Shown here piece after piece: positions 46,034 through 62,299 of a DNA stretch of 64,000 bases (the stretch's first letter is position 1; the number at the start of each line of letters is the position of its first letter). This DNA comes from a virus (taxonomy: Duplodnaviria; Heunggongvirae; Uroviricota; Caudoviricetes). The position numbers and the translations under genes were made by a program. The stretch covers positions 1-64,000 of IMG/VR virus record IMGVR_UViG_3300025467_000526. One strand, given 5' to 3'. The notes beneath the pieces were generated by a model. That model was given only the letters and a program-made list of their open reading frames with translations, did no database searches and was not told where the DNA came from.

Positions 46034-49000
46034 ATGACACAACAAGTAATTAATACAGGTATCCAGGGCAACGATGGTACCGGCGACAGTATTCGCGAAT
46101 CGTTTATAAAAGTTAATCAAAACTTTACAGAAATTTATGCGGTGTTTGGCAAAGGCGGACAGCTACAGTTAAGCAGTCTAAGCGATGGTACAACATACGC
46201 TTCTAATCAGTTAATCACTGCAAATGCCGGCGGTACTGGATTAGCCGCCAGAACGTTAACTAGTGCTGATAATTCTGTTAAAATTACATTCAGCAATACT
46301 GGTATTAATTTAGCAACAACAGCTCTTACACTAAATGCAGATAAAAGTCCAACATTAGGACAAAACATGGATGCCGCATTTAATGTTGTTGGCAACCTTA
46401 TTGATCCTGGCACTAATGCTGTTAATTCTTTTAATGCTACATATAGCAACGATCAAACAAGAATTGGTTCATTACCTGTTACAGTCAATTATGCATACAA
46501 CAATTTTGTTCAAGCAACACCTAGTAACATAACCAACACTGGTCAGACCTATACAACTCCTGTAGTAGGAACATATTCAGTTAGTGCCGCATTAAAGACT
46601 CGTAGTCAACCTGCATTACCGCAGACAACTGATTCAGATTATAACGCTTCTTATACAAGTAACTACTTGCCTACTGAAGTAATGCAACGTAAAGATGTCA
46701 CTTATCGTGGCGGTGACACTATGACTGGTCCTTTAACATTAAGCGATCATCCTGTACCGTTGTCAGGAGTTGGAACTCCTAGTACTAGTAGCGACCTCCA
46801 AGCGGCAACAAAATATTATGTAGACAATAGCACATACTATAGTAACGTAAATTTATATGTTAATACTAGCGGAGATGATTCTCAAGCACACGTGCCAGCC
46901 GGACGTAACGGTCGTGCTCCACAATATGCTTATAAAACTATCAGTGCCGCCTGTTTACAAGCACAGAATTTAATAACATTATCACAATTAGAACCAGGTC
47001 CTTATCGTCAAACAATTACATATACACTGAACCAAGTTCAATCTTCTTCAACCACTACAAGTGCAAATATTACTAGTGGTAATAGCAGTAATAGTGTATA
47101 CACAAATGCCTATGCATTGTTGTCAGGAAATGCCTATAATAGAACATTTATTCAACAAGAGACTGTTGCCTATATCAACAGCAAATATGCAACACCATTT
47201 GTATCAACTGGTTTTTATAACATACTTAAAAATTTAGTAGATGCAGTTGCCACTGACTTAATATTAAATTCGACATTTAATACCACTACACAAATTAGTA
47301 ATTTGTTTAATCCTACAAGTTTGAATCAAAATATACTTCAAACTCAATTGGCACAGATTACAGATGCTATTACCAATATGGTACCTGCACAAATTACTGC
47401 ATTTTCTTATAATACATCTTTGGTACAAAGTTATATCAACCAAGTTGTTACTGCATTAGAATACGACATTGTAATGGGTAGCAATTTCCAAAGTACTATT
47501 GTTGGTTTAAATTTTGCACACTATGGTACAGGATTAAGTAATCCAGAAATTTTGTATGCTCTTACTCAGTTACAAAGTAGAATTTTAACAAGTACTGTAC
47601 AGGCAAATGGATCTAATGTTGTATTCCAATCGGCGTTTCCTAATGCTACAAATAGTGTTACCAATAATATTGCTTTAATTAAAAATCTGGTAAGTGGTGC
47701 TACTGCTAGTACTCCTTCGATTCCAAGTATCTCAACTACTAGTGCCGAACAAGCCGATATCAAATCTTTATTACTAAGTAACATTTCATTTATACAAGCT
47801 GAAATTATTGCTTACCTAACTGCTAACTATCCAAGTTTATCTTACAGTCAAACAACATGCAAACGAGATGTTCAATATATTGTATGGTGTTTAGCCTATG
47901 ACTTAATGTATGGTGGAAATAGTCAAAGTTTATACGCTGGTTTACAATACTGGGGTGGAAAATATGCAACTACATTCCAAGAGCAAAGTTCAGAATTAAC
48001 AGCTACAATTAATGCTATCAATTATTTAAAAACATTGGTAAGCAACATTGCTGTTAACAATGCTATGGGAACTGTTGCCAACACAACATTGTATCAAACA
48101 ACCATTCCACAATACATTAACAGAACTTTATCAGTAGCTGGCGAATCTATTACAGATTCTTATGTTACTAGCCTCACTACTAATCTTGCCGCAATACAAA
48201 CTATGATTAGTTTTGCAAGCGAAAGTCTTGCTCTTGCTTATTACAATGCACAAGTAACAAATCCAAGTACAGGATTCCTAGCATCAAACGGTGAATATTA
48301 TAATGCCTTTAATGGTATTATTACACAAAATAATAGTGTAGCGTTTAGTAGTTATACCACTAATACAGATTTAACTAAATCACATTTTAATGTAATCAAC
48401 GACCTTAACGTAACAAATCCGCAAGGAACAGGTGCTATTGATAAATTATTTACTTTAGCTAAAACGTTACTTACATACGGTATAAACAATACAACACTAA
48501 CTGGTGCAAGTTCTCGTCCTACTCCATTCATATCAGCTACTCCACTAGGAGCTGTCAGTGGTTACCCTGCTTCTGCGGCTGCCATTATGGCCAACGTAGC
48601 ATTTGTGGCAGAAGATTTATATCACTATTATGTTTATGTAAACAGTGGACTGCAACCTACCATTGGTGCAGTACAATTCCAAAATGCCATTATGTATTTG
48701 GTGGAAGCTGTTGCGTATGATATTAACTACACTGATGCAAGTGTTATTTCGACCAAAGCAACTACAGATGCTGCCAATCAAATTTTAACATATACATCTA
48801 GTCTAAGTGAAAATACAAAAGTTGTTAACGCTCTTAAGAATCGTTTAGATACTATTATCAAAGCAGTTGCTACAAATACTAATGTGTCATCTACATCTGG
48901 TTTGATTTCAGGTGTTACTTATACAAATACACAAAATACTTCATTCCCAGGCAGTGGTTCTTCTGCTGGACAGATTGACAATTTATTAACTATTGCTGAA

Positions 49001-60166: not shown

Positions 60167-62299
60167 ATGACAACATTACAACTAATCAACACTGGAACCT
60201 ATGCAAATGACGGTACAGGTGACGATTTATTAACCGCGTTTAACAAAGTTAATGCAAATTTTACACTATTACAAACAGATTCAGGTGTTGCTGGTGCGGC
60301 TAATCTTGGTACAGGTGTTGGCATCTGGGCTGACAAAAACTTACTAAATTTAGAATTTAAAAGTTTAACCAGTACCGGTGGTAGTGTTGGAATTACTAGT
60401 ACTGCTACTACAGTTAATTTAGAATCAACTACTAAATTAGTAAATGATACTTCACCTATTGCAGGTGGTAATATTAATTTAAATAGTTATAATATCTCTA
60501 ACGGTGATGCTCAAACTACAATCTACGGTTATGATCCTCGTGTAGATAGTGTATTACTTGAATTACTAATGGACACAAACAACTTAACCGTTGACATGGG
60601 TTCTTTTAGTGCTCCTACTGGATACGAAACTAACCCAGTAACACAACGTACAAGTGGTGGTAGCGGTGGTTACAAATGGGACTTTGGTGCTAATTTCACT
60701 TCAATAAACAATAAAATTAATTTTGGAAACTATACAGCAGGAGATCCTATTCAAGATGCCAAGGATCATCAAGTAACATTAACTGGAAATCTTAGCCTAG
60801 CTGGTAGTCATAATTTAACTTTAACTGTCACAGCTAATACACAACTAACTTTACCCACTAGTGGTACATTGGCATCAACTGCTAGTAACTTAGGGCAGTT
60901 TGCTACTACGACCAGTACTGGATTATTTAATGTAATGGCAGATCCAACTGGGTCAGGTGGTAGTCTTGTATTTGCATCTAGTCCTACAATTACTTCTCCA
61001 ACTATTGCTGGACATGCAACTATCGAAGGAGTAACTTCAACAGGTGCAACAGGCACAGGTAATTTTGTATTTTCTTCAAGCCCAACATTATATAGTGCAA
61101 GTTTAACAGGTACTCCAGTTATAGGAGGTACAAGCGTTACAGGTTCGACTGGTACAGGTAATATTGTATTTGCAACTAGTCCAAGTTTTACGACTCCAAA
61201 TATCGATGGTGCTACTGCTACTAGTATTACTGCGGCTAATAGTACTTTTAATTTTGTTACTACAGCAACTACTATTAATATTGGTGCAAGTACAGGCACT
61301 ACTACAGTTAATAATAATTTGACCGTTACAGGAAACTTAACTGTTAACGGAACTACAACAAGTGTCAATACTGAAACAGGTACTGCTATATCGGCGTCAG
61401 CTGGATTTGTATCAACTGGAACTTTTACTAGTTCATATACTGGTGGTATCATTGTTGATTATGTTTCAGGTTCAAGCCTGGGCCGTATAAGTGTTGGCAG
61501 CGGCGCTGGCATAACATTCTATAATAATGCTAACAATACCAGGGTAGCTCTATTGGCCATAGACCAATATGGTAACACGACTCCATCTGGTGCTATATTG
61601 TTCAGTTCAGCTACTATAGTGGCGGCTGGATCTAATCAAGGTACTGCTACAGCAATTACGGCAGATAACACTTATATATCAAGTGGGACAGGCGGAGTAG
61701 TTTTACCTACTGCCATAGTTGGTAGAGAAATTTCAATTACAAATAACACAGCTAGTGCTATCAATGTTTATCCAGGAAGTGGAGCAAGTATTGAAAATAG
61801 TTCAGTTAACATACCTACATCATTACCTGCATACGCTACACTAGGCCTTGCCGCAAAAAGTACTACTAATTGGTGGGCAATACAACCAGTTTATAATAGC
61901 GGAACAAATATAAGTGTTACGCAAAGTGCTAACGGTTCTGTAACTTGGAATACTGTTGCAAGTCCAACATTTACTAATATTACACAAACTGGTTTAGAAA
62001 TTACTCCAGCAAATTACATCACAGTTAATTCTAGTACAACTTACGCATTGAGCACCACAGTTACTGATAATATTTTAATAATTGGTGCATCTGGATTAAC
62101 TGCAACTGTAACTTTCCCAAGTTCAGGTTTAATCGATGGACAACGTTTGCGTATAGCAGTGCAAGGAACTTATAGTGTAACACTAGCAGTTACCGCAGGA
62201 CCTACATTAATTGGATCGGCGGCTGGTACTGTTAACCAATCTACATCAATTATCTACATTTATAGAGCAAGCAATACCTCATGGTACAGAATACAATAA
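60167..62299 (+). CDS. tail-fibre-like protein sharing the N-terminal motif
   Basis: MTTLQLINTGTYANDGTGDDLLTAFNKVNANFTLL, T/S/G-rich. Preceded by a GTAAATATATAAAAGAGAG leader. Confidence 0.6.
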   Translation: MTTLQLINTGTYANDGTGDDLLTAFNKVNANFTLLQTDSGVAGAANLGTGVGIWADKNLLNLEFKSLTSTGGSVGITSTATTVNLESTTKLVNDTSPIAGGNINLNSYNISNGDAQTTIYGYDPRVDSVLLELLMDTNNLTVDMGSFSAPTGYETNPVTQRTSGGSGGYKWDFGANFTSINNKINFGNYTAGDPIQDAKDHQVTLTGNLSLAGSHNLTLTVTANTQLTLPTSGTLASTASNLGQFATTTSTGLFNVMADPTGSGGSLVFASSPTITSPTIAGHATIEGVTSTGATGTGNFVFSSSPTLYSASLTGTPVIGGTSVTGSTGTGNIVFATSPSFTTPNIDGATATSITAANSTFNFVTTATTINIGASTGTTTVNNNLTVTGNLTVNGTTTSVNTETGTAISASAGFVSTGTFTSSYTGGIIVDYVSGSSLGRISVGSGAGITFYNNANNTRVALLAIDQYGNTTPSGAILFSSATIVAAGSNQGTATAITADNTYISSGTGGVVLPTAIVGREISITNNTASAINVYPGSGASIENSSVNIPTSLPAYATLGLAAKSTTNWWAIQPVYNSGTNISVTQSANGSVTWNTVASPTFTNITQTGLEITPANYITVNSSTTYALSTTVTDNILIIGASGLTATVTFPSSGLIDGQRLRIAVQGTYSVTLAVTAGPTLIGSAAGTVNQSTSIIYIYRASNTSWYRIQ

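Follow-up and report, generated by a model that had tools for sequence, protein, structure and literature searches.

Three tail genes of an uncultured marine myovirus with a T4 gp9/gp10-type N-terminal module

Baseplate connectors of T4 and other phages

Among the closest counterparts of the genes reported here are the baseplate proteins gp9 and gp10 of phage T4. The 288-aa gp9 (PDB 1QEX/1S2E) is a trimer that opens with a short module (G..N..TGD....G.K.N..F..Y) followed by a helix and the XD1 beta domain. Its N-terminal domain binds a domain of the wedge protein gp7 (PMC3004832), the N-terminal helices docking on gp7 loop 258-292 (bioRxiv 10.64898/2026.03.06.709160), and its C-terminal domain holds a separate protein, the long tail fibre gp34. 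The N-terminal 200 residues of gp10 (PDB 5IV5/5HX2) are 23% identical to gp9's N-terminal and middle domains (PMC3004832), and the protein continues into XD2, XD3 and domain IV. Domain IV binds gp7, XD2 and XD3 bind gp12 and gp11, and XD1 has been described as a spacer (PMC8825819; bioRxiv 10.64898/2026.03.06.709160); our account of the gp10 N-terminus draws on one review (2010), one paper (2022) and one preprint (2026). Because gp10 attaches to gp7 via domain IV, its documented attachment point is not the homologous N-terminus, and the module is not always the anchor.

Related arrangements have been described elsewhere. Three tail-fibre-like ORFs of the Prochlorococcus cyanophage P-SSM2 (orf111, orf295 and orf298) have T4 gp9/gp10-like N-termini and were read in 2005 as fusions of a fibre with the baseplate socket (Sullivan et al. 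2005, PMC1079782). In the case of orf081 and orf082 of P-SSM4, what is a single fused gene in one phage is present in another as two neighbouring genes (PMC1079782). The N-terminal region of the CBA120 tailspike TSP4 (PDB 7REJ/7RFO) includes an XD1 fold and belongs to a modular hub that serves several receptor-binding proteins (PMC8825819); it differs from gp9 and gp10 in that its anchor is a triple beta-helix instead of their helix module. Proteins named 'gp10' or 'gp9' in the literature on Deep-Blue/Vp4, A-1(L) and Sf14 follow an unrelated numbering and were set aside.

A shared N-terminal module in three genes

We analysed a 64-kb stretch of DNA (hereafter the window) from an uncultured marine myovirus that is distant kin of the T4-like cyanophages (Kyanoviridae). 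A 16-kb portion of the window, compared by megablast with the phages in GenBank, gave no match; the phage has no close cultured relative. The features discussed below are as follows:

46034..58537, + strand: giant fibre-type gene, 4167 aa (ORF; PF07880 on residues 4-68, 28.1 bits)
46034..46150, + strand: module copy 1 (aa 1-39) of the giant protein (independent HMM, E 6e-16)
58537..58914, + strand: 125-aa 'mini gp10' gene (ORF; PF07880, 29.5 bits)
58537..58650, + strand: module copy 2 (aa 1-38; AF2 helix aa 20-35) of the 125-aa protein (HMM, E 2e-15)
58654..58908, + strand: predicted XD1-type beta domain (aa 40-124) of the 125-aa protein (AF2, Foldseek, domain HMM)
58915..60120, + strand: gene of a 401-aa virion structural protein without the module (phrog_1645, E 6e-111)
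60167..62299, + strand: 710-aa fibre-type gene in a variable slot (ORF; slot contents of relatives)
60167..60286, + strand: module copy 3 (aa 1-40) of the 710-aa protein (HMM, E 3e-9)
60167..60721, + strand: adapter region (aa 1 to about 185) of the 710-aa protein (alignment with relatives)
62312..64000, running off the window, + strand: He_PIG (Ig-like) structural protein gene outside the motif family (PF05345, E 3.8e-10)

The NDGTGD motif opens exactly three ORFs of the window, those starting at 46034 (4167 aa), 58537 (125 aa) and 60167 (710 aa), all of which are present on the + strand; the last listed of their N-termini reads MTTLQLINTGTYANDGTGDDLLTAFNKVNANFTLLQ. A six-frame regex scan of the 64 kb found these three copies and no others. 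An independent HMM, trained only on T4 gp9, T4 gp10 and proteins of cultured cyanophages with the window's own proteins left out, matched the three N-termini alone (E 6e-16 for the giant protein, 2e-15 for the 125-aa protein and 3e-9 for the 710-aa protein), the next best match in the window having an E value of 1.6. Pairwise local BLOSUM62 alignments of the first 45 residues scored 100-122, against 21-24 +/- 4-5 for controls made of shuffled sequences and of random segments from the same fibre proteins (z 18-26). The original prediction of three fibre-type genes with a common N-terminus was borne out, and with scores of 100-122 versus 21-24 in the controls it passed the shuffled-sequence test that it had itself named, the similarity lying far above the expectation from composition. 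The module starts within residues 1-5 of all three proteins; copy 3 has a one-residue insertion following Thr2.

To judge from these comparisons, the N-terminus that the three have in common is a truly homologous module that opens baseplate-periphery and fibre proteins, and it corresponds to the N-terminal domain of T4 gp9 and gp10, PF07880 (T4_gp9_10_N). This domain is long established in Pfam, and the original prediction had described the motif without recognising the family. Against a curated gathering score of 25 bits, PF07880 scores 28.1 bits on the giant protein and 29.5 bits on the 125-aa protein. On the 710-aa protein it is the sole Pfam match and stays under the cut-off (20.4 bits, E 6e-4); we count this copy as a member by transitive evidence, because the independent HMM matches it with an E value of 3e-9. 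Matches by tblastn in 331 phage records land on genes annotated as gp9 or gp10.

The module also recurs in paralogous sets. The cultured Synechococcus phage S-SSM7 (Kyanoviridae) encodes SSSM7_102, SSSM7_218 and SSSM7_233 (340, 714 and 853 aa), which begin with the same module and are matched by PF07880 with 47 bits (_102) and 41 bits (_218); unlike in the window, these genes are scattered in the genome and none is giant. Among 81 loci scanned, 39 carry the module, and 34 of these hold tandem arrays of two to four module-bearing genes.

Distal parts and gene neighbourhood

The three proteins diverge beyond the module. The first ~160 residues of the giant protein are gp9-like and the remainder is a Thr/Ser/Gly/Asn-rich fibre: residues 1-168 match phrog_677, 'baseplate wedge tail fiber connector' (E 2.7e-12), and residues 1-153 are 31-32% identical to cyanophage gp9 by tblastn, whereby the 4167-aa protein is identified as a gp9-like base with a fused fibre. 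An AF2 model of its first 250 residues is of low confidence (pLDDT 58) and contains a helix at residues 18-30 only. In its conserved C-terminus, Pfam and PHROGs held no named domain, the only matches being the unnamed phrog_22593 and phrog_6427. The gene is mosaic relative to related phages. The giant genes (>15 kb) of P-SSM2 and P-SSM4, by contrast, are fused to gp7 and not to gp9/gp10; the ORFs of these phages are likened to the window genes by their published description.

The 125-aa gene follows immediately, its ATG overlapping the stop codon of the giant gene (TAATG). Its product is modelled with high confidence (pLDDT 91 overall and 95-98 over residues 40-124) as a helix at residues 20-35 and nine strands, so that the order of extended segment, helix and XD1 is as in gp9 and gp10. 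T4 gp10 is its best match in both sequence and fold: in a phmmer search of the PDB, residues 3-98 align to gp10 residues 2-112 (E 1.2e-6), and Foldseek places gp10 of phage KP1 (E 1.8e-8) and of T4 (E 3.3e-7) at the top, followed by the N-terminal region of CBA120 TSP4 (about 1e-5) and T4 gp9 (E 2e-3). The XD1-domain HMM matches T4 gp10 at residues 70-138. The earlier view that this product is essentially the anchor domain alone has to be revised, for residues 40-124 form a predicted beta domain like the XD1 of T4 gp10, T4 gp9 and CBA120 TSP4. The same HMM gave no significant match in the giant or the 710-aa protein (iE 0.05 or worse), and two further XD1-like domains proposed by eye at the 710-aa C-terminus were rejected on that account.

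None of the three proteins is an orthologue of a T4 protein along its whole length. Past the N-terminal and middle region they have no match to gp9, and where gp9 has a C-terminal domain for a separate proximal fibre, the 125-aa protein ends after XD1 and the giant and 710-aa proteins continue as fibres themselves. The match to gp10 spans gp10 residues 2-112 only; the XD2 and XD3 jellyrolls and the C-terminal domain IV are not present in the window proteins, and CBA120 TSP4, too, differs from them in having XD2 and XD3. Among cultured phages our searches brought up no separately annotated gene of the 125-aa helix and XD1 type, and the regions of S-SSM7 that were read hold no such protein. A ~108-aa Kyanoviridae gene located just upstream of the 401-aa homologue was considered as a counterpart and proved unrelated in sequence.

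The 125-aa gene's stop codon is followed directly by the 401-aa gene, and the nearest relatives of the 401-aa product are Kyanoviridae proteins annotated 'virion structural protein' (41-46% identity). In the relatives L005, L006 and L008, the giant gene likewise precedes a 126-aa and then a 400-aa gene. What follows is variable: the slot of the third gene holds a 269-aa protein in L005 and L006, and in L008 and the P0004 contigs a 160-aa protein with a separate one of 965 aa after it, every slot protein in the relatives opening with the module. The adapter region of the 710-aa protein equals the complete 160-aa protein of L008, which parallels the orf081/orf082 case in that a single gene of the window stands against a pair in the relative. 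A PDB sequence search with the 710-aa protein returned no match. Further downstream, the syntenic He_PIG proteins of relatives measure 883 and 1025 aa. T4-type late promoters (TATAAATA) were sought ahead of the three module genes and none lies nearby; the motif occurs twice in the window against an expectation of 10.4. No gp7 homologue or docking loop was found within the 64 kb.

Probable anchoring on the baseplate and competing explanations

The reading that we consider probable is that the three tail genes are gp9/gp10-type paralogues anchored on the baseplate by their N-terminal module, with distal parts that vary. The module, an extended segment with NDGTGD and then one alpha-helix, may reasonably be taken for a shared anchor because the N-terminal helices of T4 gp9 dock on a gp7 loop. 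By analogy, each protein would presumably form a trimer whose three N-terminal helices bundle and clamp a loop for docking on gp7, the wedge protein, so that the trimer is plugged onto the baseplate via its N-terminus with the distal part pointing outward; that the proteins trimerise and dock on a gp7-like loop is inferred, as is the identity of the 125-aa protein's partner. The giant protein would then be a fibre of ~4000 aa on a gp9-like base, in other words a fibre fused to its own socket, and the 710-aa protein a fibre of ~525 aa joined to an adapter of ~185 aa. The 125-aa protein, with a single XD1 beta domain, may be a stub or else act as a minimal connector to some other protein, the most plausible candidate being the 401-aa virion protein, to which it is translationally coupled.

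The T4 precedent can also be turned around. If the module were used as in gp10, the N-terminal helix and XD1 would be a spacer or a partner-binding end, and other domains would fix the proteins to the baseplate or to another fibre within a branched complex resembling T4 gp10-gp11-gp12 or CBA120 TSP1-4. The 125-aa protein is indeed nearer to gp10 than to gp9 in sequence and fold, the TSP4 branching hub is among its Foldseek matches, and gp10 itself reaches gp7 by domain IV and gp12 and gp11 by XD2 and XD3 while XD1 is a spacer. We nonetheless regard a gp10-type use as unlikely: no homology to XD2, XD3 or domain IV was found in any of the three proteins, the first ~160 residues of the giant protein match gp9-family profiles, and as the 125-aa protein has no domain beyond helix and XD1, only the helix could plausibly attach it. 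That this small gene might be a functionless, decaying N-terminal fragment of a longer gp9/gp10 gene is suggested by the extent of its matches, which cover only the first ~112 residues of T4 gp10 and the first 117 of the 400 positions of the phrog_8859 profile, but this explanation is effectively refuted by the conservation data. The gene is under purifying selection (dN/dS 0.13-0.20 against orthologues), at least 15 clusters contain full-length homologues of 122-126 aa with 52-99% identity, its position and start/stop coupling are kept in relatives, and the predicted fold is confident and complete.

The DNA of the gene starts bears on a further proposal, that the shared 5' sequence is an active substrate for homologous recombination among the three genes, shuffling fibres and switching host range. 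The DNA strings on which it was built were quoted correctly, the starts being 63-69% identical across 108 nt, and related phages do differ in their distal parts. Between 46034 and 58537, however, the 42 of 60 identical positions compare with 39.9 +/- 2.2 predicted from the amino acid alignment and local codon usage (P 0.23), the 74 of 108 across the module with 67.9 (P 0.03), and no exact run exceeds 12 nt (P 0.32); neither of the remaining pairs departs from expectation (P 0.25 and 0.69). Since identity is what protein similarity and codon usage predict, the DNA similarity of the gene starts is no evidence of recombination. Each paralogue's lineage-specific residues (GDP.RTAF in the 125-aa lineage, Y..NDG.GDD in the slot lineage and a 12-residue signature of its own in the giant lineage) match orthologues in other phages and not the neighbours in the same genome, which means that paralogues have not been homogenised within the genome. 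Moreover, comparison with relatives puts the point where the third gene passes from shared to unshared sequence at ~185 codons from its start and not where the 40-codon module ends, and contigs 99% identical to the window keep the same three genes unaltered. Recombinational shuffling through the shared DNA is therefore very improbable; of the idea of a common anchor with swappable distal parts, the homologous module and the variation of the distal parts in relatives stand. On the preferred reading, the anchors are retained across related phages, whose distal parts undergo fusion, splitting, insertion or replacement, and this variability reflects the ordinary, modular way in which receptor-binding proteins evolve.

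Although real, the observation is ordinary, since cyanophages with this arrangement were reported in 2005 (Sullivan et al. 2005, PMC1079782), and it raises no new question. The widespread helix and XD1 proteins of ~125 aa could conceivably, though we hold this only tentatively, constitute a distinct class of free-standing minimal baseplate connectors or 'dummy plugs', which would either bring the 401-aa virion protein to docking sites of the gp7 type or compete with the fibres for docking sites; in the latter case the 125-aa protein would set the number of each kind of fibre per virion. For annotation, three unannotated genes of an uncultured marine myovirus can be assigned to the baseplate periphery or fibre set, and their metagenomic relatives illustrate how distal fibre parts evolve by fusion, fission and mosaicism while the anchor stays constant.

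An N-terminal domain of the gp9/gp10 type shared by three proteins

The same N-terminal segment of about 40 residues (the NDGTGD module) begins the products of three open reading frames:

46034-58537, plus strand: giant open reading frame, 4167 aa
58537-58914, plus strand: open reading frame of 125 aa
60167-62299, plus strand: open reading frame of 710 aa, whose product begins with MTTLQLINTGTYANDGTGDDLLTAFNKVNANFTLLQ

A regular-expression scan of all six frames found exactly these three copies in the 64 kb. The shared motif of the original prediction is real: local BLOSUM62 scores among the first 45 residues of the three products are 100-122, compared with 20-24 +/- 4-5 both for shuffles and for 45-aa stretches drawn at random from these low-complexity fibre proteins (z = 18-26). 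None of the shuffles scored above 47, and composition bias is thereby excluded as the cause of the resemblance.

The module corresponds to PF07880 ('Bacteriophage T4 gp9/10-like protein, N-terminal'), which Pfam assigns to the giant (28.1 bits) and the 125-aa protein (29.5 bits) at a cut-off of 25 bits; it is also the sole Pfam match of the 710-aa N-terminus, there under the cut-off at 20.4 bits. Matches in PHROGs are phrog_677 'baseplate wedge tail fiber protein connector', phrog_958 'baseplate wedge subunit' and phrog_6942 'tail fiber protein'. An independent HMM, built from T4 gp9, T4 gp10, ACG-2014d gp9 and three S-SSM7 proteins and containing no window sequences, retrieved only the three N-termini when run on the six-frame translation (E 6e-16, 2e-15 and 3e-9; next E 1.6). 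Residues G9, T16, G17, D18, K26, N28 and F31 are invariant in the alignment with T4 gp9 and gp10, and tblastn of the 125-aa protein finds matches in 331 phage records (Synechococcus, Escherichia, Rhizobium, Aeromonas and others) that land on genes annotated gp9 or gp10.

The giant matches phrog_677, a gp9-family profile, over residues 1-168, and its residues 1-153 are 31-32% identical to cyanophage gp9 by tblastn. Beyond the first ~160 residues follow some 4000 rich in Thr, Ser, Gly and Asn, and to judge from the sequence a fibre and its own socket seem to be joined in this protein. The C-terminal ~145 residues (4023-4166; window 58103-58534) are its best-conserved block, 71% identical to the related locus L008; they match only the unnamed phrog_22593 and phrog_6427 and may form a folding/chaperone domain or a receptor-binding tip.

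The 125-aa protein and the proposed mode of attachment

The 125-aa product had been taken for essentially the anchor alone, which is not what structure prediction returns. AlphaFold2 with 50 homologues (pLDDT 91) yields a single helix at residues 20-35 plus a beta domain of nine strands at 40-124 (pLDDT 95-98). With phmmer against PDB sequences, residues 3-98 resemble residues 2-112 of T4 gp10 (E 1.2e-6), and the best Foldseek match of the model in the PDB is gp10 of Klebsiella phage KP1 (E 1.8e-8), followed by T4 gp10 in the baseplate (5IV5, E 3.3e-7), the N-terminal region of CBA120 TSP4 (~1e-5) and T4 gp9 (E 2e-3). Such a beta domain, common to gp9, gp10 and TSP4, has been named XD1 (Chao et al. 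2022, PMC8825819). The two halves also occur separately in metagenomic proteins (P0056, P0059, P0061, P0062, P0084, P0088, P0103 and P0108): an XD1-type domain stands behind an unrelated N-terminus (MTLLSDKLKRRI...), and in a family of ~129-aa proteins the module is followed by a different C-terminal domain, of ~90 aa. Additional XD1 copies, visually suspected in the C-terminus of the 710-aa protein, were not supported by HMM search.

The 125-aa gene is functional, as its dN/dS of 0.13-0.20 against two orthologues and at least 15 clusters of full-length homologues of 122-126 aa show. Its ATG overlaps the stop codon of the giant (TAATG) and its own stop codon directly adjoins the ATG of the gene for a 401-aa virion structural protein; both junctions suggest co-production with the neighbours. 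Speculatively, the 125-aa protein may serve the 401-aa protein as a connector; that the ~125-aa proteins form a distinct class of free-standing connectors or plugs seems doubtful.

In T4, the gp9 trimer attaches to gp7 by its N-terminal domain, and gp10 shares homology, over its N-terminal 200 residues, with gp9's N-terminal and middle domains (PMC3004832); the gp9 N-terminal helices bind a docking loop of gp7 domain III, residues 258-292 (bioRxiv 10.64898/2026.03.06.709160). By analogy with these facts, we infer that each of the three proteins would trimerise, with the N-terminal helices clamped around a loop of a gp7-type wedge protein while the distal part points outward. In the 125-aa protein the helix is the only plausible attachment element, since there is no other domain besides XD1. 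The module is not the anchor in every protein carrying it, since the documented contacts of T4 gp10 lie elsewhere (domain IV with gp7, XD2/XD3 with gp12/gp11), with XD1 given the role of a spacer (PMC8825819). We consider such a gp10-like use, the chief alternative, unlikely in the present proteins and favour anchoring through the module.

Variable distal parts and separate paralogue lineages

The related loci L005, L006 and L008 share the order giant, 126 aa, 400 aa, variable slot and He_PIG protein. In the window the slot is filled by a protein of 710 aa, in L005 and L006 by one of 269 aa, and in the P0004 contigs (L008) by one of 160 aa, after which comes a separate 965-aa gene whose N-terminus differs; the module begins every slot protein. 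The first ~185 residues of the 710-aa protein correspond to the whole 160-aa protein of L008 and, save for an 88-residue insertion, to the 269-aa protein of L005. The giant gene is mosaic: identity to relatives is 37-71% in the blocks at residues 1249-1584, 1983-2157 and 3203-3443 and in the C-terminal ~150-450 residues, and the stretches between these blocks vary in length and lack any BLAST match. The proposed anchor with variable distal parts holds, the module being kept across the related phages.

Among 81 scanned loci (79 from IMG/VR plus L005 and L008) the module is present in 39, on complete open reading frames of 85 to 709 aa, and 34 of the 39 carry tandem sets of two to four module-bearing genes, such as the 121/326/323/488 aa of L077. 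Tandem runs occur among loci L057-L090 (e.g. L077:837-4700 and L081:7168-11840), with consecutive genes of different length. Such runs suggest repeated local duplication of anchored fibre genes.

The nucleotide strings quoted in the original prediction are correct, but the DNA homology for recombinational shuffling drawn from them is not borne out. The starts of 46034 and 58537 are identical at 42 of 60 positions and at 74 of 108 across the module, compared with 39.9 +/- 2.2 (P = 0.23) and 67.9 +/- 3.0 (P = 0.03) in 5000 back-translations of the two aligned peptides with these four genes' codon usage. Exact identity extends over 12 nt at most, with 9.7 expected (P = 0.32), and the remaining two gene pairs agree with expectation (P = 0.25 and 0.69). 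The resemblance in DNA thus follows from that of the proteins, and neither identity nor exact-run length in this comparison gives any sign of recent gene conversion between the gene starts. An exact run of 12 nt is a poor substrate for homologous recombination. Each copy carries the signature residues of its orthologues in other phages (GDP.RTAF in the 125-aa lineage, Y..NDG.GDD in the slot lineage, and likewise a signature of its own in the giant lineage). Out of 36 positions, window copies share 20-24 with their genomic neighbours and 23-27 with orthologues; being no closer to the former, the three copies show no homogenisation within the genome, and the three paralogue lineages are old.

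Genomic setting and precedents

Megablast against GenBank phages gave no match. The 401-aa protein matches phrog_1645 (E 6e-111) and shows 41-46% identity to the 'virion structural protein' of Kyanoviridae (T4-like cyanomyoviruses), and the locus recurs, identical or at 99% identity, on metagenomic and IMG/VR contigs. These results identify the source as an uncultured marine myovirus at the fringe of the T4-like cyanophages. The G+C content of the window is 37%. The T4 late-promoter octamer TATAAATA occurs twice in the whole window (10.4 +/- 3.5 expected from shuffles), and the whole-window scan placed none near the fibre genes. Immediately upstream of the fibre cluster lie genes for an Fe/Mn superoxide dismutase (43652-44209; PF02777 and PF00081) and an IscA/HesB-type Fe-S cluster assembly protein (45681-46031; PF01521), probably auxiliary metabolic genes. 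A 472-aa fibre-like protein without the module (39292-40710), whose C-terminus matches the tail-fibre/short-tail-fibre families phrog_23059 and phrog_2617, is encoded 5 kb upstream amid non-structural genes. Downstream, both flanks of 62350-62517 match the IMG/VR loci L012 and L014 at 98-99% identity, and between the flanks these loci have about 1.77 kb in place of 167 bp, so that the He_PIG structural protein of L012 (L012:13783-18168, 1461 aa) opens with an animal haem peroxidase domain in complete form (PF03098, E 1e-113); the window's He_PIG protein is without it. These near-identical phages differ here by an indel the size of a domain in a putative virion protein.

Gp9/gp10-type N-termini on several fibre-like proteins of one phage are already known. 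In P-SSM2, orf298 resembles a proximal fibre 'fused to the baseplate socket' gp9, orf295 joins a fibre to gp10, and orf081 and orf082 of P-SSM4 match the two halves of orf298 (Sullivan et al. 2005, PMC1079782); cultured S-SSM7 likewise has three module-bearing paralogues, of 340, 714 and 853 aa. The window is a further example, from an uncultured lineage, and adds a giant gene (12.5 kb) with a base of the gp9 type together with a minimal 125-aa member consisting of helix and XD1.
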